Of a stretch of 41,081 nucleotides of DNA, positions 10,334 to 38,803 are shown piece after piece. Each line of letters opens with the position of its first letter. The stretch's first letter is position 1. The position numbers were made by a program, and so were the translations under genes. The notes under the pieces were generated by a model. The model worked only from the letters and a program-made list of their open reading frames with translations. It was not told where the DNA came from and searched no databases. This stretch comes from Candidatus Nanoarchaeia archaeon (GTDB taxonomy: Archaea > Nanobdellota > Nanobdellia > Woesearchaeales > JACQNA01): assembly GCA_035289865.1 (NCBI GenBank), contig DATDVW010000079.1:1-41081 (forward strand), in the 5' to 3' direction.

Positions 10334-11203
10334 TTACCCCTGCTTCTCGAGCACGACCATAGTCTTAAAAGCGAATTGACTTTTGAATGGGAGAAACTGC
10401 TCAATAGTACGAAGTAATGGATAAAAAGAATCAGGAACAAGGCTATTTCGATGAAATCCGCCGGTAAGGGGATAAACGATGTATTCAAATACCTCTTTAT
10501 GGATGATAGTAAACTTCGGAAAGTTTTTCTTGAATACGTCCAATCGCTTGTAGAATAGTATTGTTGGTATTGCAAGATTTGCATCAAGCGCTTTGTCATT
10601 CACACGAAGTGAAAAAAAATCAATGTCTTCGTGGTGGAAGAGCTTCCTTATTACATATGAGAAAGGTGAGAGGTATGGCTCCACAAGGATGAGCTTGCCT
10701 TTGGGCTCTAACACCCGTAATGCTTCGTTTAAGAAAGAAAATGCGGAGGTGTAGTGATGAATGCCATCAATTACCACTAGGGTGCTTATCGAGTCTCTGG
10801 AGAAAGGCAGGGAGGTTGAGCTCGTAACGAGATCTATGTAAGGGCTGTATCGAATATCGCTGCTGATGCAGTAGAGAAAGGAGTCTTTAAAGTTTCCTAT
10901 GCCCGCACTGAGTTCGATACTTAATTTATTTTTGTCTAAGAAGGGGGCAATCTTTTTGTACCATGACCGGTAGGTTTTTCTAAGTATTTTCTTGTTTTCC
11001 CATGTTTTCCTGCACTGATTTAGTTCGCTTATGTCTTCAAATGCGTAACTGAGCTCTGTTTTATGTAAAAGCAACGGGACGCCGGCGTGTATTGGGTACG
11101 TCGCCGGGCATTTCTTACAGCTTAATGTATTCTTATTTAGGGATAAAGAGCCTTTGCAATCCGGACAACATAAGATGCGCCGTATATCTTTGTTCTTTAA
11201 CAT
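10334..11203 (-). CDS. Trm112-like zinc-ribbon + class I SAM-dependent methyltransferase
   Basis: 'ILCCPDCKGSL...LSCKKCPATYPIHAGVPLLL' (CxxC...CxxC ribbon) followed by a methyltransferase-like core ('ELSAGIGNF'). The ORF-track start is TTG, so the first ATG (11203) is used. The gene is visibly AT-rich. Confidence 0.7.
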   Translation of the reverse strand: MLKNKDIRRILCCPDCKGSLSLNKNTLSCKKCPATYPIHAGVPLLLHKTELSYAFEDISELNQCRKTWENKKILRKTYRSWYKKIAPFLDKNKLSIELSAGIGNFKDSFLYCISSDIRYSPYIDLVTSSTSLPFSRDSISTLVVIDGIHHYTSAFSFLNEALRVLEPKGKLILVEPYLSPFSYVIRKLFHHEDIDFFSLRVNDKALDANLAIPTILFYKRLDVFKKNFPKFTIIHKEVFEYIVYPLTGGFHRNSLVPDSFYPLLRTIEQFLPFKSQFAFKTMVVLEKQG

Positions 11204-11442
11204 GGTCTTTTGGTCCCTACTTTTATTCGTCAAAAACCACCGGGCTGATGTCGGAAATCAGGGATTTCTGAGCACACTCAAAAATGCTCGGCATTTTTGA
11301 TGGAATGGTGGAAATTGATATTATGATGTTTATTTAATGAGAAAGTATACCCCCATTATAAAGAGTTAACGTAAGCTTTATAAGGGATGGAGAATATCAG
11401 ATGTAACCTGTTGGAAGGACTATCTCAAACGAGTGACCGTCT

Positions 11443-14749: not shown

Positions 14750-16714
14750 ATGAAGATTCCGCTTATCGGCATCATCGCTGCGCTAATCGGCGCATGCATC
14801 CTCTGGAACCCGCTGATCGTATTCGTGGTGCCTGGCGTCTTTCTGCTCTTCCCGCGCCGGGACTTCATCCATGCGCTGATATATTGCATCGGCGCTTCCC
14901 TGGCGTTCTGGATTGCCGCTGCATGGTTTGTGCGGTTCGCCGGATGGTCGTTGACAAACACTGTATATGTAGTTGCTCTCCTGTCGCTGCTCGGCATCGC
15001 CCTGCTGTTCCGGAAGAGCCTTAGGCCTGTAGAGATACGCCGGGAGAGCGCTGCTGTTCTGGCAGTATTTGGCGTCATTCTCCTCCTCCGCCTGCTGCCC
15101 ATGAGCCAGATGATTGTGGCCCCTGGCCCAGGAGACATGGCGGAGCATACCTATCCGGTCACCCTGATTCAGCTCAACGACGGGCTGCCAAATTCGTATG
15201 AGCCTTTGTTGCCGATTCCCTATTTTGGGACGTATGCAGTCGGCTTCCATACCATCAGCGGATTGTTCACGCTGCTGAGTGATATTCCTGATTACCGCGC
15301 CACGTTCCTCATGGCGGGCCTAGTGTATGTTCTGCTGAGTATGGCAGTGTTTGTGTTGGTCAATCAGTTCTTCAGCAAAAAAACTGCGCTAATCACCTCT
15401 CTTGCTGCGCTGTTCTTAACGACTTACCCGCAGCTGATATTCCACTGGGGAGGCAACCCTACCGCATTCAGCTTCTTTTTCGTGGTGCTTGGGATGTCGC
15501 TGCTGGTGCGCATCCATGAGCTGCGATTAACAGAAATTGTTCTGTCAGCAGGGTTTCTTGCTGCAGCGCTTCTTACCCACATCAATCCGTTCCTGACATT
15601 TTTCTATGTGTATGGAGGATATGCGGCATATCAAGCTGTCAGCAGGCTCATCGCCGGAAAAGGAGTACAACGCATGATTATCAACCTGCTGAGCATCGTA
15701 GTTATTGCTGCACTGCTGCTTGTTCCGTATTTCGCCTATTTTGAGCTCGGGCTTTCTGCGGATGAACGCGAGGAGTTCACGCAAAAGTATTTTGACCATA
15801 CAGTGTTTCCCGCATTCCTGCCACGAGCACTGGAGAACATCCTCATCGGGCCGATACAGGCAGTTGCGTTCACCAGCATCCCTTTTGCGCTGATGGCCGC
15901 TCTCGGATGGGTTATGCTCACCTGGCAGCGAAAGCGAATTGTGCTGGATGCTACGATGTTTACACTCCTTGTTTTCCTGATGATTGTAAATGCAAAATAC
16001 TGGATCCTGCCGTTCTCATTTACGCTGATGACAGATAGGATCAGCCTGTTTTTCATCATCCCGTTTTCCTTCTGCACCGCAGGGCTGGTGGAACAGCTCG
16101 TGAAACGGAAGGCATTCTGGATTGCTGTCGGGCTGTATCTCGTGCTGGTGATCGGTTATTTCTCGGCGGTCGACATTAATTATTTTACTTCTCCTTATTA
16201 TACTGACCGGAGCGCGATCGGCGTTAAGGATGTTGCTGCTCTTGCCGCCTACCAGGCTATTGGCGGGCCTGCTGCATTGTTCATGTTCGGTATGGAGAAC
16301 GATTCTCTTATCACTGAAGCTGACCTACTGGCATTTGCTTGGATACGGGAGAATACCCTACCTGAAGACATATTCATAAATGATCAGTCAGGAAAATGGA
16401 TTCCGGTAATGACACACCGCCGCATCCTTATCGTTCATGTGCCTCTCAATTATCATGAAGAGATTCGAGTAGCATACAATCTTACTTCGTTTTACACAAA
16501 AGAGTATATAGTAGGAGGGATAACAACGCCACAGTTTAATCTTGAAGAATTCCTTAGCGATATCGCTAATGTTAAATCCCGAGGTATTAAATATGTTTAT
16601 ATTGGCAAGAAATACCTGTTTAGGTATTTGATAGATTCAGCACTCTTTTTGAATAATCCTGATTACGAACTTGTATATAACGGAGAGGGTGTGCGTATCT
16701 TCAAGGTACGATGA
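14750..16714 (+). CDS. Large polytopic membrane protein, GT-C-like glycosyltransferase/polymerase candidate with C-terminal soluble domain
   Basis: More than 12 predicted hydrophobic helices over about 480 aa, then a hydrophilic tail of about 150 aa. Diverges from a GtrB-like GT2. No WWDYG-type OST motif seen. Confidence 0.5.
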   Translation: MKIPLIGIIAALIGACILWNPLIVFVVPGVFLLFPRRDFIHALIYCIGASLAFWIAAAWFVRFAGWSLTNTVYVVALLSLLGIALLFRKSLRPVEIRRESAAVLAVFGVILLLRLLPMSQMIVAPGPGDMAEHTYPVTLIQLNDGLPNSYEPLLPIPYFGTYAVGFHTISGLFTLLSDIPDYRATFLMAGLVYVLLSMAVFVLVNQFFSKKTALITSLAALFLTTYPQLIFHWGGNPTAFSFFFVVLGMSLLVRIHELRLTEIVLSAGFLAAALLTHINPFLTFFYVYGGYAAYQAVSRLIAGKGVQRMIINLLSIVVIAALLLVPYFAYFELGLSADEREEFTQKYFDHTVFPAFLPRALENILIGPIQAVAFTSIPFALMAALGWVMLTWQRKRIVLDATMFTLLVFLMIVNAKYWILPFSFTLMTDRISLFFIIPFSFCTAGLVEQLVKRKAFWIAVGLYLVLVIGYFSAVDINYFTSPYYTDRSAIGVKDVAALAAYQAIGGPAALFMFGMENDSLITEADLLAFAWIRENTLPEDIFINDQSGKWIPVMTHRRILIVHVPLNYHEEIRVAYNLTSFYTKEYIVGGITTPQFNLEEFLSDIANVKSRGIKYVYIGKKYLFRYLIDSALFLNNPDYELVYNGEGVRIFKVR

Positions 16715-29362: not shown

Positions 29363-30136
29363 ATGGTCTCCCTCGTGGATGCGATTCTTCTCGGCATCGT
29401 GCAGGGAGTGACGGAGTGGCTGCCGATATCGAGCAGCGGGCACCTGACGCTGCTGCAGGAGTTCATGGGGATCAAGGTGCCGGTGCTGTTCGATGTGGTG
29501 CTGCACATCGGGACACTGCTGGTGGTGCTGCTGGTGTTCCGGAGGGATATCTGGCGGCTGGCCAGGGCAGTGCTGTTCTGGGACTATGGGAAAAACGAAC
29601 GCCTGCTTGCGCTCTACCTCGTGCTGGGGACCGTCTGCACCGGGCTGATCGGCTATTATTTTTATGACATCCTCATCCCCTTATTCTCCAATGTCCGGGC
29701 AGTGGGGATTGCGCTGCTGGCGACCGGGGTGATCCTGCTGTTCAGCATGCGAAGGACACCGGAGCGGGATATCGCATGGAGCGACGCCATTATCGTCGGC
29801 ATTGCGCAGGGGATCGCGCTCATCCCCGGCATCTCGCGGAGCGGCATCACGATCTCGGCCGGGCTGTTCCGGGGGCTGTCGCCAAAGACGGCTGTCCGCT
29901 TCAGCTTCCTGCTGCTCATCCCGGCGAGCATCGGGGCGCTGGCGCTGCAGCTGCAGCGCGAGGCGAGCGCGCCTGCGGATATCATGCCCTATCTTGCGGG
30001 AGGGGCTGCGGCAGCCGTCGTGGGATATTTCACCCTGCGCTGGCTGATGCGGATCGTGCAGCAGCAGCGCCTCTGGATGTTCAGCGTCTACTGCTTTGTG
30101 GTGGGGATGGGAGTGGTGATTGCTTCTTTTTTGTAG
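29363..30136 (+). CDS. uppP: Undecaprenyl/polyprenyl-diphosphate phosphatase (BacA/UppP)
   Basis: 'GVTEWLPISSSGHL', 'PGISRSGITI'. Confidence 0.9.
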   Translation: MVSLVDAILLGIVQGVTEWLPISSSGHLTLLQEFMGIKVPVLFDVVLHIGTLLVVLLVFRRDIWRLARAVLFWDYGKNERLLALYLVLGTVCTGLIGYYFYDILIPLFSNVRAVGIALLATGVILLFSMRRTPERDIAWSDAIIVGIAQGIALIPGISRSGITISAGLFRGLSPKTAVRFSFLLLIPASIGALALQLQREASAPADIMPYLAGGAAAAVVGYFTLRWLMRIVQQQRLWMFSVYCFVVGMGVVIASFL

Positions 30137-30157
30137 GGTGCCGTTGTTTTTGATTTA

Positions 30158-30874
30158 TTATATTTTAGCTGTTTTCCACAAAACCTGAAAGTAATTTCTG
30201 TAAGAATCAGCTAATTCCTTGTTTTCCATCAGGATGGCGATTGGGTCCTCCACCCACATGAAGATTGCTATCTTGTCGTCATAAATAAAGGTGGAGCTCA
30301 GGTTCTTAAACTCGATATCGAGGAATTTTATAATCTGCAGCTTTTTCCTTGGGACCTTCCCCTTGAATGACCTCGAAGTGACTATCCTCATCCTTATCCT
30401 GTTTTTTATCCGGTGAGATTCCCAGATATTGAAATATTCAGGGTAAAACCCCGGAAAGATCCCTGAACCGTAGTCAAGTATCTCTGTTTTTGAAGCCAAT
30501 GCATCCTTGAGGACTGTCTTTAATCCTAGCCTTCCCTTGAAAACCTGGACATCCTTCTTTACGCCCCCCTTGAAGATGTTTGACAACTCTGACAACTCTC
30601 TTTCAGCATTCTTTAACTCTTCTTCCCTCTTTTTTAATAGATTTTTTAACGCTTCTGGGTTCGCAGGATGAAATATCTTCTTGTTTACCTTAATGACGGA
30701 AGAAACTAATCCTTTTTTCAGCAGAGATTCCAGAACGTCATAGATGTTCACCCGGTGGACATTTGTTTTCTTTGCGATCTCCGAAACAGAAGCAGGGCCT
30801 AGTTTGACTAAGGCGATGTACACCCTTGATTCATTCCTGCTTAAGCCCAGTTTCTCCCATGTTTCTGGTTCCAT
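30158..30874 (-). CDS. TrmB-family transcriptional regulator (paralog A)
   Basis: N-terminal wHTH 'LGLSRNESRVYIALVKLGPASVSEIAKKTNVHRVNIYDVLESLLKKGLV' plus a C-terminal effector-like domain. Clear paralogy to 38093-38803. Confidence 0.8.
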   Translation of the reverse strand: MEPETWEKLGLSRNESRVYIALVKLGPASVSEIAKKTNVHRVNIYDVLESLLKKGLVSSVIKVNKKIFHPANPEALKNLLKKREEELKNAERELSELSNIFKGGVKKDVQVFKGRLGLKTVLKDALASKTEILDYGSGIFPGFYPEYFNIWESHRIKNRIRMRIVTSRSFKGKVPRKKLQIIKFLDIEFKNLSSTFIYDDKIAIFMWVEDPIAILMENKELADSYRNYFQVLWKTAKI

Positions 30875-30896
30875 AAGGTATGGTGACCATGCTGGC

Positions 30897-30904
30897 TTTA
30901 TATA
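30897..30904 (-). promoter_or_regulatory. TATA box (TATATAAA on minus strand) for trmB-A
   Basis: About 26 nt from the ATG at 30874. Confidence 0.5.
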
Positions 30905-30914
30905 GATTATGTTT

Positions 30915-30937
30915 TTGTTGTATTATGTATACTACAA
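30915..30937. promoter_or_regulatory. Candidate operator: TTGTTGTA-N7-TACTACAA inverted half-sites
   Basis: Imperfect palindrome between divergent trmB-A and the phosphatase gene. The same TTGTWGTA octamer recurs at the trmB-B promoter. Confidence 0.4.
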
Positions 30938-30993
30938 AATAATAAATAGGCAATCCATACTACTTCGTGATAACAATAGCAAGGTAGATCACC

Positions 30994-31764
30994 ATGGCTT
31001 TAAATCACATCATAGAAGTTTGCTGCACGGGGAATAATGGAAGAAGCAAGATAGCTGAAGCAGTAGGCAATGCGTATACCCGTAATATGCGGATTTTCCG
31101 GTGGGATCAGGACTATCTCCCTCTGCCAGGTATAGACCTGGAAGATACGATCCGCTTCATTTCCTCAGGCACCAGAGCCGGCCCTGAACATGATGCGCAT
31201 CTTCCCTATGACAAGGTCGCTTCAATTTTCAGGAGCGCTTCAAGCCACGGGCTGATGAAGCCAGCCAGTCTGGATAAGGATAAATATGAGCATGATCCGG
31301 ATTACCATGCTGCCATGCAGGAAAGGGCCCACATGGCATTCAGGATACTGCGCCCTATTGAAGCTGCCTTAAGAAACTCTTCGTTATACGATGTCGGCCT
31401 TACTTGTGATGAAACAAGGGTGCAGACAACGGCAAGAGGCGATGTTTCCCTTGTCCTGGGTATGGAGCAGAAGCATGTGGATCAGGTAAACGAGATCTAT
31501 TCTTCAGGGGCAAAAAGACCGTTGATCACCATGGTAACTGAATATGCCGGAGTTGCAGGGGAAATACCGGATGCCATAGGCAATACCGACCCTCATGTTT
31601 ATGCTGCCATTAGGGGTAGGCTTATTGATCTCATGCCGAAAGTCATTGACCGGTATGCGAAGGAGTTTATAAATCGAAAAGCGCGCACCAGTTATTACAA
31701 TGTTGACTTTTATGGCAAGTGCCCCCTGCGCAGCGATCTGCCCCCTCATTTTTTTCCAGATTAG
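30994..31764 (+). CDS. Low-molecular-weight phosphatase fold protein (LMW-PTP / arsenate-reductase-like) with a large insertion
   Basis: P-loop 'VCCTGNNGRSKIAEA' (C-x5-R-S) at the N-terminus and a distal 'EIPDAIGNTDP' Asp-containing loop. 256 aa versus about 150 for typical members. Confidence 0.55.
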   Translation: MALNHIIEVCCTGNNGRSKIAEAVGNAYTRNMRIFRWDQDYLPLPGIDLEDTIRFISSGTRAGPEHDAHLPYDKVASIFRSASSHGLMKPASLDKDKYEHDPDYHAAMQERAHMAFRILRPIEAALRNSSLYDVGLTCDETRVQTTARGDVSLVLGMEQKHVDQVNEIYSSGAKRPLITMVTEYAGVAGEIPDAIGNTDPHVYAAIRGRLIDLMPKVIDRYAKEFINRKARTSYYNVDFYGKCPLRSDLPPHFFPD

Positions 31765-31767
31765 ATA

Positions 31768-32433
31768 ATGGTTAATATCCCATATTTCAAAGACAAGAGA
31801 ATAATTATCATAGAGGGGATTGCAGGCAGCGGTAAAAATACTATCCAAGAGCGGATTAAAGACAGGTATAATCAAGAAAAATTTAGAGTATATGATTTCT
31901 CAGAAGAAGATCTCCTTTTCTCATGGAAACATTTTTGGATAGAGAATATGGAGATGCACAGGATACGATACTTGCATTCATTGCTCGATTATTGTGAAAA
32001 GCTGATTGATGGGCACACAAAGACCGTGATAATATTAAACAGATTCCATATAACTTATGCAATCGTCTCAGAATATCGCAAGGAAGCTAAAAAATTGTAT
32101 GATAGGTTAGTTGACCGGCTGCGGGGCCTGCCAGTACATATTTTTATCGGCAGATTGGGATTGGAGGATATCGAAAAGAGAGCAAGCCATTCTGAAAGAA
32201 AAGACGAGATATGGAGGATCCATCAGCAGAAGAGAATCAAGCGGTCAAATGTACGTTCATTATCTGAATTGTACAAGAACGAGCAGGAAGCCATTTTTAA
32301 GATAGCAGAAAAGCAGGGGATTCCTTATTCGGTTTTTGAGTTTAAGGGATCAAAATGGGTCCTGAAAGACGGCGACCTGGTCGAGGTTGATGCCCGCACC
32401 GGCAGAGTAACAAAAATAAAGGGCAGGGGATGA
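31768..32433 (+). CDS. P-loop NTPase / small-molecule-kinase-like protein with a borrowed 19-aa C-terminal tail
   Basis: Walker A 'EGIAGSGKNT'. AT-rich body. The last about 25 codons are GC-rich and lie within the 58-bp repeat shared with the next gene's 3' end. Confidence 0.55.
   Translation: MVNIPYFKDKRIIIIEGIAGSGKNTIQERIKDRYNQEKFRVYDFSEEDLLFSWKHFWIENMEMHRIRYLHSLLDYCEKLIDGHTKTVIILNRFHITYAIVSEYRKEAKKLYDRLVDRLRGLPVHIFIGRLGLEDIEKRASHSERKDEIWRIHQQKRIKRSNVRSLSELYKNEQEAIFKIAEKQGIPYSVFEFKGSKWVLKDGDLVEVDARTGRVTKIKGRG
32358..32415 (+). repeat. 58-bp direct repeat, copy 1 (57/58 identical to 33672-33729)
   Basis: GGTCCTGAAAGACGGCGACCTGGTCGAGGTTGATGCCCGCACCGGCAGAGTAACAAAA. The single difference is A at 32406 versus G at 33720 (synonymous Arg). 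Confidence 0.95.
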
Positions 32434-32442
32434 CTGCCTTAT

Positions 32443-32605
32443 AGGCCCTGTAGAAAACTTGTTGCGCTCATATCGGAAATCCCGAGATTTCCGCGTACCC
32501 GAAAACGTTCGGCGTTTCCCAGGGGTAGCGCCGGTTCGCTCCATGCTGTTGCAAAGTGTAGCATCGCTCACGGGATGGCGCTACCCTATATTCTCTACAG
32601 AGCCC
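32443..32605. other. GC-rich structured intergenic element (nested inverted repeats; candidate ncRNA/MITE)
   Basis: Outer inverted repeat GGCCCTGTAGA (32444-32454) / TCTACAGAGCC (32594-32604). 8-bp hairpin at 32474-32493. 10-bp stem GGGTAGCGCC (32523-32532) / GGCGCTACCC (32578-32587) enclosing a further hairpin ATGCT...AGCAT. Confidence 0.35.
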
Positions 32606-32618
32606 CATGAGGGATAGG

Positions 32619-32626
32619 TTTATATT
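32619..32626 (+). promoter_or_regulatory. TATA-like box TTTATATT
   Basis: Immediately upstream of the swivel-domain ORF. The geometry favours a leaderless start at the ATG at 32650 (31 nt). Confidence 0.45.
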
Positions 32627-32637
32627 TGTTAATAACG

Positions 32638-33774
32638 ATGACTGAGTATATGGCCCATAACGAATATGCCCGTATCAAGGAGATTATAACAAAATACCAT
32701 CTTCAGCCAACTACGCAGAGGAACCTTCCCCTGCTTACCCTGAGCATCATCACCATGGGGTATACCATTCATCTCAAACGGAGATTGGGCTATTCTTACG
32801 AAGCGCTTGTATTTATCGGCAGAGAAAATTGGTTCCATTCGATGATGGGCGAGGAAATCCTGAATAACAAGACAAGGGCGTATCTGAAGAAGAAGCGGGG
32901 CATTGATGCGCTGCTTGCCTCCCTGATTACGGAGTTTAAGAAAGCGAGAAAGGGCATACTCCTCGTAAAAAAGATACAGGACAAAAAGCAGGCTATTCTG
33001 GAGATCCTGGAAAATTATCTCCTGTATATGGCAGTGATCAGCGTGTATAACTGCTTCTGGAGATATATCGGCAACAGGGAGCATGACCAGTTTATTTCTG
33101 ACAGGATCATACAAAGAATTTCGCATGAGAGAGTCCTGGTGGCGAAATTTTACCCAAAAATTGAGGAGATTATCCGCGCTGTGGTTATTGCCATCGGCAA
33201 ATCCAGCGGTTTTGACGGAACATTGCTGCAGTATTTGTCTTATCTTGAGTTTGGAGGATGCCTGAGAAAAGGGATAAGTGAAGAGAAAATAAAAGAGCTA
33301 AAAAAGAGAAAGGAAAGGTATTTTTATGCATTTGTGGAAAAAAGCGGGAAAGAGTTGATAACAACGGACAAGGCAGTCATCAGCCGGCTCCAAAGGGAGT
33401 TTTATGACGTCAACGAAAAAATAACAGAGTTAAGGGGCTTCCCCGCCTATACAGGTTTTGTCGTTGGAAGGGTATTTAATATGACTACATCCCAAGGGCG
33501 GCCTTCAGGCGGCTATATCCTTGTTGCGCCGTCAACGCACCCGGATGATATCGGGCTGATAAAAGATGCCGCAGCCATCGTCACCGATGAGGGCGGCATC
33601 CTCAGCCATGCTTCAGTGATCTCACGGGAACTGAAGATACCGTGCGTCGTGGGCACGAAGGTGGCCACGAAGGTCCTGAAAGACGGCGACCTGGTCGAGG
33701 TTGATGCCCGCACCGGCAGGGTAACAAAACAGATGCATCCCCGCACTCCAGCAGGGAGACTCCGGAGTATTTGA
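32638..33774 (+). CDS. PEP-utilising-enzyme mobile (swivel phospho-His) domain protein with an unassigned helical N-terminal region
   Basis: C-terminal 'IVTDEGGILSHASVISRELKIPCVVGTKVATKVLKDGDLVEVDARTGRV' matches the PEPS/PPDK phosphohistidine domain. No ATP-grasp motifs recognised. Start is uncertain (TTG 32626, ATG 32638 or ATG 32650). Confidence 0.7.
   Translation: MTEYMAHNEYARIKEIITKYHLQPTTQRNLPLLTLSIITMGYTIHLKRRLGYSYEALVFIGRENWFHSMMGEEILNNKTRAYLKKKRGIDALLASLITEFKKARKGILLVKKIQDKKQAILEILENYLLYMAVISVYNCFWRYIGNREHDQFISDRIIQRISHERVLVAKFYPKIEEIIRAVVIAIGKSSGFDGTLLQYLSYLEFGGCLRKGISEEKIKELKKRKERYFYAFVEKSGKELITTDKAVISRLQREFYDVNEKITELRGFPAYTGFVVGRVFNMTTSQGRPSGGYILVAPSTHPDDIGLIKDAAAIVTDEGGILSHASVISRELKIPCVVGTKVATKVLKDGDLVEVDARTGRVTKQMHPRTPAGRLRSI
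33672..33729 (+). repeat. 58-bp direct repeat, copy 2
   Basis: See copy 1. Here it encodes the native end of the swivel domain. Confidence 0.95.
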
Positions 33775-37685: not shown

Positions 37686-38096
37686 ATGGCTATGGAAAAA
37701 AGAGGGCAGAGGAACCATCACCCGGTGCTGCACCGGCAGCTGCGCTTCCACCAGCGGGCTGCGAACATGCTCACCAAGTATGTCGGCAGCTGGACGTTCA
37801 TCTTTGTCGTCCTCCTGCTGATCGCCGCCTGGATAACCACCAATGCCTATCTGCTGGTCACCGGATGGGACCATTATCCCTTCATCCTGCTGAACTTCAT
37901 CCTCTCCTGCCTTGCCGCGCTGCAGGCGCCGATTATCCTGATGAGCCAGAACCGGGCTGCTGAGCAGGATCGGCTGATGGCAAAATATGACTATCAGGTG
38001 AACCGGAAGGCGGAGCGGGAGATTGCTGAGCTGCGGAAGGATATGAACATTATTAAGAGTATTCTGAAGAAAAATATATTAAAGGGCCGTCATTAA
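37686..38096 (+). CDS. DUF1003-family membrane protein
   Basis: Two TM helices with 'WDHYPFILLNFILSCLAALQAPIILMSQNR' followed by a coiled C-terminal region. Confidence 0.6.
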   Translation: MAMEKRGQRNHHPVLHRQLRFHQRAANMLTKYVGSWTFIFVVLLLIAAWITTNAYLLVTGWDHYPFILLNFILSCLAALQAPIILMSQNRAAEQDRLMAKYDYQVNRKAEREIAELRKDMNIIKSILKKNILKGRH

Positions 38097-38803
38097 TTTT
38101 TCGCCGCTCTCCAGATAAGCTTAAAATATGACCGATAGCTTTGCGCAATCTTTCTGCTGGTTATGACTGTTGCAAGGGGGGTATCGGACCACATAATGAT
38201 GGCTACTTTATCCCCGTAGATCCATGTTGTTGAAGGAGTTGCATAGGCGTCTGGAATAAAACGGAATCTCGCCCGAGCAGAGGTCACAATCTCTTTATCC
38301 CGGAGATGTTCAGGCATAAGCACCAACGAGAGTATCTTCTTTTCACATTTGCGCTCCTGAAACCATCTAAAATCATGCTGCATAACTTCAAGAAACTCAC
38401 CCATAGAACCGAATGAAAAATACTCTTTGTACGTTAAGATATCCTGCATGATTGAACGAATGCCTTTTTTACCCTTGAATACTACCGAATCTTCTTCTTT
38501 TGTTTCAGCATAGATTTGTTCTAATGCGGGGAGCATCTTCTGCACGGCGCGCTCTTGTTCACGGATGTTCTCTACAATTTTCCTCGGTGCCGCTGGTTTG
38601 AAGATTTTCCTGTTTGCTTCAATAGCATAAGTCACCAGCCCTTTTTCCAGCAGCCGTTCAAGCACATCGTAAGTCGTGGTGCGATTTATCTGTGTTTTTT
38701 TGCTAATAGTGCCTGCACGCGCTTGCCCAAGCCCAAGGAGGATAAAATAGATTCTCGCTTCTGCACGGTTTAACCCGGCTTTTTGCAACTGCTCAAATTC
38801 CAT
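38093..38803 (-). CDS. TrmB-family transcriptional regulator (paralog B)
   Basis: 'AGLNRAEARIYFILLGLGQARAGTISKKTQINRTTTYDVLERLLEKGLV'. Collinear with paralog A through to the 'SYRSYFKLIWRAAK' end. Confidence 0.8.
   Translation of the reverse strand: MEFEQLQKAGLNRAEARIYFILLGLGQARAGTISKKTQINRTTTYDVLERLLEKGLVTYAIEANRKIFKPAAPRKIVENIREQERAVQKMLPALEQIYAETKEEDSVVFKGKKGIRSIMQDILTYKEYFSFGSMGEFLEVMQHDFRWFQERKCEKKILSLVLMPEHLRDKEIVTSARARFRFIPDAYATPSTTWIYGDKVAIIMWSDTPLATVITSRKIAQSYRSYFKLIWRAAKN

Follow-up and report, generated by a model that had tools for sequence, protein, structure and literature searches.

The two-component dikinases HpeHI, CreHI, and PpsAB (phenylphosphate synthase) consist of an H component, which combines a rifampin-binding-like domain with a swivel domain, and an I component, which is the ATP-grasp subunit (PMC12167813). 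Rifampin phosphotransferase (RPH) is an 865-aa single chain with a fused ATP-grasp domain and a rifampin-binding domain of ~430 aa (PDB 5FBT, 5HV1; PMC4844700). The swivel motif has been defined as T/S-x-x-G-G-x-x-x-H, and in phosphoenolpyruvate synthase (PEPS) and pyruvate phosphate dikinase (PPDK) a regulatory Thr lies two residues before the catalytic His (PMC12167813). Here we describe a locus in a 41,081-nt stretch of DNA (hereafter the window; contig DATDVW010000079.1 of assembly GCA_035289865.1) from the genome of a Candidatus Nanoarchaeia archaeon, a Woesearchaeote of the DPANN group (1.32 Mb in 115 contigs, 99.7% complete). A low-GC island in the window carries a gene for a TrmB-family regulator, diverging from three consecutive open reading frames (ORFs) that encode a low-molecular-weight protein tyrosine phosphatase (LMW-PTP)-like protein (ORF1), a P-loop kinase-like protein (ORF2), and a swivel protein (ORF3). 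A previous reading made from the sequence alone (the sequence-only reading) took these genes for a phospho-transfer triad under TrmB control. We propose that the island probably comprises two units of separate descent, with the His of ORF3 phosphorylated in trans, and with ORF1 and ORF2 acting as antagonists on a separate substrate; we put the probability of this reading at roughly 0.6. The first unit would be the TrmB regulator gene diverging from a two-gene phosphatase-kinase cassette, the second would be ORF3 with its own promoter, and the two would have become neighbors by rearrangement.

The junction between ORF2 and ORF3 is a rearrangement scar. It is marked by a 58-nt direct repeat, whose two copies (R1 and R2; Table 1) are identical at 57 of 58 positions. 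R1 is followed, at positions 32416-32433, by the family-typical ending IKGRG and a stop codon, and this terminus (...GRVTKIKGRG) matches the swivel consensus ...GxVxxIK. Relatives of ORF2 (186 to 197 aa, 38 to 71% identity) end in ...FEFKR, a point that coincides exactly with the start of R1; the family part of ORF2 stops at about residue 195, and its last 26 aa are foreign. The native stop codon of ORF2 is thus gone, and its frame continues for 26 foreign codons. At the other end of the repeat, the native last codons of ORF3 are lost (the family ends in ...IK or ...IKx). A miniature inverted-repeat transposable element (MITE)-like sequence with 15-nt terminal inverted repeats lies between R1 and R2; its family numbers about 11 copies in this genome and is also represented in G001, a genome of the same genus. 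Target-site duplications of 9 bp accompany other copies but not the one in the island, an absence that suggests a rearrangement at one of its ends. What remains amounts to ~1.04 units of a repeat of 1314 bp that spans the swivel gene and the MITE; its left boundary falls at the end of ORF2, and its right boundary five codons short of the native stop of the swivel gene. The left edge of the repeat replaced the kinase stop codon, and its right edge removed the last five codons of the swivel gene. The arrangement is not an assembly artifact: six or more contigs assembled independently of one another show this gene order, and for several of them k was 141, more than the length of the 58-nt repeat.

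Two other interpretations of this region were considered and rejected. The 58-nt repeats do not behave as att sites of an integrative element, as the 1.3 kb between them contains only the swivel gene and the MITE, with no integrase; and a GC-rich spacer, examined as a known RNA, gave an empty Rfam scan and is the MITE itself. We note that the MITE family is typically ~162 to 164 nt long (with variants of 216 and 342 nt), has terminal inverted repeats GGCTCTGTAGAAAAT / ATTTTCTACAGAGCC, and is represented on contigs C4, C6, C32, C43, C54, C71, C86, C88, C100, and C107 of the window's genome (G000), several copies lying near contig ends.

In other DPANN contigs, the phosphatase and kinase genes recur as a conserved pair. 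Homologues of the two share contigs, with 4-nt spacing or overlapping, in at least eight instances, all in DPANN contexts; in none of those other loci does a swivel gene stand beside the pair, and no third conserved gene was found around the cassette, including upstream. The sequence-only reading was correct in calling ORF2 Walker-A kinase-like, as GIAGSGKNT is present, although matches to Pfam and NCBIfam models are weak and confined to the P-loop. An AlphaFold2 model of ORF2 (mean pLDDT, 87.5) finds YorR, dTMP kinases, deoxynucleoside kinases, and adenylylsulfate (APS) kinases in Foldseek searches (E values of 1e-5 to 1e-3, TM scores of 0.4 to 0.55). From this model ORF2 appears to be a P-loop kinase of the nucleoside/nucleotide kinase fold, which is a generic fold, and we assign it to no specific family.

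The kinase family is sporadic, being present in 8 of 401 genomes in a sample of the phylum, and this raises the possibility that phosphatase and kinase together constitute a mobile cassette of the toxin-antidote or defense type, in which the kinase is the toxin, the phosphatase counteracts it, and the swivel gene is unrelated. Tight coupling of two genes in variable contexts, low GC, the lack of a conserved upstream gene, a transposase gene near the cassette in locus L009, and MazE and zeta-toxin-like genes near it in locus L013 are all in keeping with such a cassette. However, PADLOC defense models gave only generic P-loop and helix-turn-helix (HTH) matches, and the kinase gene is often solitary or adjoins a TrmB gene, without the phosphatase, and we consider this explanation very unlikely.

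Relationships within the phosphatase family also separate ORF1 from ORF3. As the sequence-only reading had noted, ORF1 has an N-terminal C-x5-R-S phosphatase P-loop and a large insertion, which sets it apart from the 150-aa LMW-PTPs. It does not have the compact ~150-aa form; ORF1 is 256 aa long and its family ~215 aa, and alignments of the family with PDB entries are split into two stretches that flank an insert of ~90 residues. The best PDB matches of the family profile are YwlE arginine phosphatases, which align both with the P-loop half and with the Asp-containing C-terminal half, and ORF1 keeps the Cys, Arg, and Asp residues. Its relatives are 209 to 219 aa long (44 to 61% identity), and none has the 15-aa insertion (MRIFRWDQDYLPLPG) or the 28-aa C-terminal extension that are private to ORF1; public gene calls for ORF1 are 143, 225, or 256 aa. 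The long LMW-PTP-like family as a whole contains at least 327 clusters at 50% identity (E <= 1e-10), nearly all of 200 to 250 aa, and among 168 representatives the Cys is conserved in 98% and the Arg in 97%, with the general-acid position occupied by Asn in 42% and by Asp in 39%. The phosphatase tree places ORF1 in a clade (100/97, 23 rows) whose known partners are all P-loop kinases and never swivel genes, whereas members outside this clade are mostly swivel-linked. The general-acid Asp is kept in ORF1 and its clade. Because the Asp is kept and the partners in the clade are kinases, ORF1 appears to be a phosphatase of the hydrolytic type, in partnership with a P-loop kinase, and we infer that ORF1 and ORF2 are probably an antagonistic pair acting on one shared substrate, separate from ORF3.

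At the level of the whole family, phosphatase and swivel genes are nonetheless linked. Profile searches for long LMW-PTP genes in GTDB representative genomes and JGI metagenomes yielded 33 loci, all of them archaeal-labeled metagenome-assembled genome records or metagenome contigs. Of the 25 loci with sufficient flanking sequence, 19 have a swivel gene no more than two genes away from the phosphatase gene; in 11 of these 19 the swivel gene is the next one downstream, in the same orientation. In 11 loci, the phosphatase gene has a TrmB gene upstream of it in divergent orientation. In the window's genome, a swivel gene is 3 kb or less away from only 6.5% of positions, and chance therefore does not account for 19 of 25, although the loci are related to one another and the comparison is not a formal probability. 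Locus L076 has a three-gene operon encoding an LMW-PTP-like protein, a 368-aa swivel protein, and a 270-aa ATP-grasp protein, and seven loci lie in or beside a heat-shock operon with the order grpE-dnaK-(LMW-PTP-like)-(swivel)-HD-dnaJ (L075, L077, L078, L089, L090, L093, and L097, some with a 207-aa HD-domain gene). The grpE-dnaK-dnaJ genes of the window's own genome (C72:4086-8131) are uninterrupted. That genome does have a second long LMW-PTP-like gene, at C27:1366-2031, which is GC-normal, encodes a product with 25% identity to ORF1 and the same insert architecture, and lies within a cluster of swivel and ATP-grasp genes. Asn replaces the general-acid Asp in 14 of 17 swivel-linked phosphatase homologues, with the Cys and Arg kept, and these relatives may have another role, such as carrying or trapping phosphate.

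These patterns suggest an explanation in which the long LMW-PTP-like proteins serve swivel proteins generally, with phospho-His drained or accepted onto the Cys, either as a SixA-like reset or as a carrier similar to EIIB of the phosphotransferase system (PTS). For the window, this would mean trans action of ORF1 on ORF3 and the 16 remaining swivel paralogues, with the kinase gene as an unrelated passenger. Beyond the co-location itself, the L076-type operons, and the C27 copy, the Asn substitution with retained Cys and Arg would fit a stable Cys-phosphate or a trapping protein. But ORF1 retains the Asp and sits in the kinase-linked clade, where the swivel partner has been replaced by a kinase that has no phospho-His, and for ORF1 we regard general service to swivels as unlikely.

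The triad itself, with kinase and phosphatase acting on the adjoining swivel protein as a regulatory pair or a phosphorelay under TrmB control, must be judged against the same data. The three genes adjoin one another both in the window and in at least six assemblies, long LMW-PTP genes are linked to swivel and TrmB genes in the family at large, and the closest PDB relatives of ORF1 hydrolyze a P-N bond (in phosphoarginine), such that phospho-His hydrolysis is chemically plausible. However, in the short-swivel tree the phosphatase-neighboring swivels form a single clade (99/91), whereas ORF3 is in a different one with homologues P0002 to P0004 and P0006 (100/100 and 99/99), whose contigs lack a phosphatase gene; the phosphatase and the swivel protein of the window thus belong to mutually unlinked clades. 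The kinase family is beside no swivel gene in 10 other loci, and the one kinase locus that lies 4 kb from a swivel array is compatible with chance. A P-loop kinase of the fold of ORF2 has no phospho-enzyme intermediate to relay, and the swivel gene has its own TATA-like box behind the MITE, at a junction that is a scar. The analogy drawn by the sequence-only reading to the dedicated regulatory kinase/pyrophosphorylases of PEPS and PPDK (PSRP/PDRP) also fails, as there is neither a DUF299 domain nor a regulatory Thr: PF03618 (DUF299) has no match in ORF2 at E <= 1 and is absent from the genome, with control genomes giving matches, and the residue two positions before the His in ORF3 is a Leu that is nearly invariant in its family. 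All three genes together occur in no other locus among the ~10 kinase-family and ~35 phosphatase-family loci examined. We therefore consider the triad quite unlikely as a unit in the window; what stands of it is the link among phosphatase, swivel, and TrmB genes in the family at large, where the phosphatase-swivel pair does recur.

The second unit, ORF3, has a PEPS/PPDK-type swivel domain with a phospho-His (PF00391, E = 8e-24), as the sequence-only reading had recognized, and the phospho-His motif GGILSHASVISRELKIPCVVG is present as that reading quoted it. The catalytic His is residue 320 of the 374-aa form, and the E, G, G, and H residues of the motif TDEGGILSH are invariant across 73 family members. 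The absence of ATP-grasp and PEP-binding motifs from the N-terminal 270 aa, also part of the sequence-only reading, is borne out by the lack of any PPDK_N or PEP-utilizers_C match, and ORF3 is probably a stand-alone carrier of phospho-His, dependent on a partner protein. The likely start is the ATG at 32650, where homologues begin in line with MAHNEY and for which a 374-aa gene call exists on the contig; the TATA-like box at a short distance upstream suggests a separate promoter for ORF3 and an mRNA with almost no leader.

A search recovered 2592 homologues of ORF3, the best of which, from Patescibacteria (candidate phyla radiation; CPR) and DPANN sources, are full-length proteins of 355 to 375 aa that match PF00391 only. 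Conserved residues are spread along the whole length of the family (for example, R32, G55, N142, R146, R169, E208, and R228, and beyond them the swivel motif), and an alignment-based AlphaFold2 model is confident (mean pLDDT, 94.7; pTM, 0.87). The top six PDB matches of this model in Foldseek are all RPH (E values of 4.5e-10 to 3.8e-8 over ~398 columns); the whole-model alignment has a low TM score (0.35) and a large rmsd, as would be expected of a mobile domain. Independently of structure, NCBIfam and PDB sequence profiles align residues ~178 to 365 of ORF3 with RPH 685 to 866, of which ~178 to 270 correspond to RPH 685 to 766, the end of the rifampin-binding domain, and the remainder to the His domain.

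These properties bear on whether ORF3 is a decayed PEPS or PPDK remnant, a possibility that the sequence-only reading had itself raised for a truncated PEPS. Only the central swivel domain of PEPS and PPDK is present, and the native 3' end has been lost, as might be seen in a pseudogene. However, ORF3 is an intact gene without internal stops, with hundreds of full-length ~365-aa homologues, conserved N-terminal residues, and a compact, confidently predicted fold, and the genome has intact PEPS and PPDK genes elsewhere; a pseudogene is extremely improbable. We also rejected the idea that ORF3 is a chimera of a foreign N terminus and a host swivel domain, which was prompted by the GC content at third codon positions (GC3) of its last 60 codons (0.72 to 0.75): that part is ~79% identical to P0003, compared with <=~51% to the genome's own paralogues.

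The genome encodes 17 stand-alone swivel proteins (367 to 522 aa), mostly in tandem arrays, together with one PEPS and one PPDK. It has one stand-alone ATP-grasp gene, C27:4403-5293 (296 aa; PPDK_N, E = 5e-94), which sits among four swivel genes, and there is no ATP-grasp gene adjacent to ORF3 in the window. By analogy with RPH and HpeHI, ORF3 would be the H-type subunit of a split dikinase, its N-terminal domain binding the substrate and its C-terminal domain acting as the swivel; His320 would be phosphorylated with the β-phosphate of ATP by an ATP-grasp subunit encoded elsewhere, for which C27:4403-5293 is the candidate, and the phospho-His would then swing its phosphate onto a small molecule held in the N-terminal domain. 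ATP-grasp fusions in two DPANN loci support the ATP-grasp/ORF3 partnership that we infer. The protein encoded at L084:2886-6626 and L104:7659-11399 (both minus strand) has 1246 aa, with an N-terminal ATP-grasp domain and three ORF3-like modules, two of which are complete with swivel domains, and similar fusions are present in L080 (1162 aa) and L103 (1348 aa).

Other arrangements of swivel genes were seen in the course of this analysis. A 224-aa gene with a faint His_Phos_1 signal (L003:3011-3685, minus strand) lies among three swivel genes on a contig where the nearest relatives of ORF3 are encoded, and may represent a second, unrelated phosphatase family tied to swivel arrays. At L087:2539-3180, a 213-aa ORF consists of two tandem swivel domains only, between two TrmB genes and near a long LMW-PTP-like gene.

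Several considerations weigh against our proposal of two separate units. The scar may be the product of a tandem duplication and subsequent deletions, or else of recombination between copies of the MITE. The first ~150 to 180 residues of ORF3 match RPH only through the whole-model Foldseek alignment, and homology in that part is tentative. The C27 ATP-grasp partner is assigned only as the sole stand-alone one in a fragmented assembly. Finally, given the link seen in 19 of 25 loci of more distant relatives, selection may have favored co-location in the window as well, and ORF1 may hence be functionally coupled to some extent with ORF3 or with the 16 other paralogues.

The island regulator matches the TrmB HTH domain (PF01978), as the sequence-only reading had it, but the C-terminal sugar-binding domain was not detected in this 238-aa protein (sugar-sensing TrmB proteins have ~340 aa), and the NCBIfam equivalog models score it well under their cut-offs. 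At least 11 TrmB paralogues of ~240 aa are encoded in the genome. One of these, at 38093-38803 of the window (minus strand), is 34% identical to the island protein, lies in a very AT-rich stretch (GC, 0.34 to 0.40, from ~38 kb to the end of the window), and adjoins genes for an NMT1-type binding protein and an ABC ATPase. The region between the TrmB and phosphatase genes is, to judge from its sequence, a putative divergent promoter region.

The ORFs and sequence features of the sequence-only reading are all present where it placed them, and the AT-rich island that it described is evident from composition; the 58-nt repeat, the MITE, and the private insertion and extension of ORF1 go unmentioned in that reading. 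Island genes have GC contents of 0.40 to 0.49 (GC3, 0.45 to 0.57), compared with 0.62 for uppP (GC3, 0.83), 0.56 for glnA (GC3, 0.75), and 0.55 for the whole genome. GC falls from 0.64-0.70 to 0.35-0.52 at about position 30100, and the putative right edge is placed at 33729, where ORF3 departs from its family consensus. As the sequence-only reading also stated, glnA is convergent with the swivel gene; the neighboring nitrogen operon appears incidental, as no related locus has one. Scans of the window for tRNA genes and Rfam families gave no match, and the island is not tRNA-targeted. No empty site or intermediate arrangement was found, the only same-genus genome, G001 (77% complete), lacking uppP, glnA, and the island genes, and no DNA-level relatives of the island are present among 40 relatives. 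Elsewhere in the window, a 299-aa ORF at 10334-11233 (minus strand), in another low-GC patch (GC, 0.42 to 0.45), and a 654-aa ORF at 14750-16714 (plus strand) have no Pfam match at E <= 1e-5.

Table 1. Features of the low-GC island and its kinase-swivel junction (positions in the window)
Feature	Position	Strand	Basis or remark
Low-GC accessory island	30137..33729	none	From uppP stop (30136) to glnA 3' flank
TrmB-family regulator, 238 aa, N-terminal winged HTH	30158..30874	-	PF01978 at E 3.8e-20
AT-rich region between TrmB and phosphatase genes, 119 nt, TATA-like CTTTATATAG	30875..30993	none	Sequence read
ORF1, long LMW-PTP-family phosphatase, 256 aa	30994..31764	+	PF01451 above curated cut-off
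ORF1 P-loop C11-T-G-N-N-G-R17-S18 (C-x5-R-S)	31024-31047	+	Alignments
ORF1 candidate general acid D193	31570-31572	+	D193 in IPDAIG aligned with YwlE DPFG loop
ORF2, P-loop kinase-like protein, 221 aa	31768..32433	+	Walker A and predicted fold
ORF2 Walker A GIAGSGKNT	31816-31842	+	Sequence
Repeat copy R1, orphan copy of the swivel gene's last 19 codons, in frame with ORF2	32358..32415	+	
MITE-like element, 161 nt, terminal inverted repeats GGCCCTGTAGAAAAC ... CTCTACAGAGCC	32444..32604	none	Between R1 and R2
TATA-like box TTTATATT	32619..32626	+	About 28 nt upstream of ATG 32650
ORF3, putative H-type dikinase subunit, 374 aa (open frame from 32626, 382 aa)	32650..33774	+	Family, model, profiles
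ORF3 PEP-utilizers mobile (swivel) domain	33511..33717	+	PF00391, residues 296-364 of 382-aa frame, E 8e-24
ORF3 catalytic His codon CAT, in T-D-E-G-G-I-L-S-H	33607-33609	+	Family alignment
Repeat copy R2, within intact swivel gene	33672..33729	+	
ORF3 non-family 14-aa tail QMHPRTPAGRLRSI and stop, into glnA 3' flank	33730..33774	+	In no homologue

The broader interest of the locus lies in the families to which it leads. DPANN and CPR genomes are tiny, yet 17 genes in this one are devoted to stand-alone phospho-His swivel proteins, and one swivel clade is tied genomically to a ~215-aa LMW-PTP-like family and to TrmB genes, sometimes within an Hsp70 operon. The pairing of a phosphatase relative with half of a dikinase appears undescribed so far; in the open-access subset of the literature that was searched, we found no LMW-PTP/swivel module described in DPANN or CPR. 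Published DPANN surveys label such swivel genes 'phenylphosphate synthase', and note that the rest of the pathway is missing (PMC8091004). The link between swivel genes and an LMW-PTP-like family with either Asp or Asn at the general-acid position is a testable handle on a large unexplained block of DPANN genes, and a phosphotransfer system of a new kind, driven by ATP, is one possibility that these findings bring up. One doubtful but specific form of this idea is that an Asn-type long LMW-PTP-like protein, a dedicated swivel clade, and an ATP-grasp protein constitute a PTS-like His-to-Cys phosphorelay of DPANN archaea, driven by ATP. Such a relay may be under divergent TrmB-type control and, in several lineages, reside within a grpE-dnaK-dnaJ operon, and the island in the window may be a reshuffled derivative with a hydrolytic Asp-type phosphatase, a kinase, and an unrelated swivel paralogue alongside. 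Alternatively, the swivel-linked genes might encode a phenol- or tyrosine-directed dikinase/phosphatase switch. The window also offers a caution, in that its tidy three-gene 'phosphorelay' was probably put together by insertion, duplication, and MITE activity.

Comparison with known systems places these possibilities in context. EIIB-cellobiose structurally resembles LMW-PTPs, and in many DPANN loci a phospho-His swivel adjoins an LMW-PTP-type Cys protein, which recalls the PTS path from the swivel His of Enzyme I to the Cys of EIIB; loss of the Asp in swivel-linked members is compatible with a carrier Cys. Unlike the PTS, however, the DPANN loci have no HPr, EIIA, or EIIC, the donor would be ATP via ATP-grasp rather than PEP, and the window's own phosphatase keeps its Asp. 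With YwlE of Bacillus (PDB 4KK3, 4PIC), ORF1 shares the C-x5-R-S P-loop and a C-terminal Asp loop (IPDAIG, compared with DVLDPFG in YwlE), but ORF1 and its family are longer than the 150-aa YwlE through the insert between the conserved halves, the P-loop of ORF1 is CTGNNGRS, and the family pairs with swivels or a P-loop kinase, not with McsB or BY-kinases.

For ORF3, the swivel domain is homologous to those of PEPS and PPDK (E values of 1e-24 to 1e-34), but the protein has neither the ATP-grasp domain (PF01326) nor the PEP/pyruvate TIM barrel (PF02896) of those enzymes, only PF00391, and NCBIfam models for PEPS and PPDK match the swivel region only, far below their cut-offs. RPH is the best whole-model structural match of ORF3, and a path from the β-phosphate of ATP to His and on to the substrate is presumed by analogy; ORF3 differs in having no fused ATP-grasp domain, and shows no sign of an antibiotic substrate. 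Like the H components of HpeHI, CreHI, and PpsAB, ORF3 is a stand-alone protein with a C-terminal His swivel, preceded in ORF3 by a putative substrate-binding region with possible homology to the rifampin-binding domain of RPH, and its ATP-grasp subunit would be encoded by a separate gene. ORF3 is smaller, with about 365 aa in comparison to about 600 aa, and its N-terminal ~150 residues belong to the short family alone, the alignment of longer paralogues beginning only at profile position ~150; the window has neither an adjacent ATP-grasp gene nor an aromatic-catabolism context, and the ORF3 family occurs in multigene DPANN and CPR arrays, with 17 copies in the 1.3 Mb here. DPANN swivel proteins of this type are probably the H-type halves of split, RPH-like dikinases.

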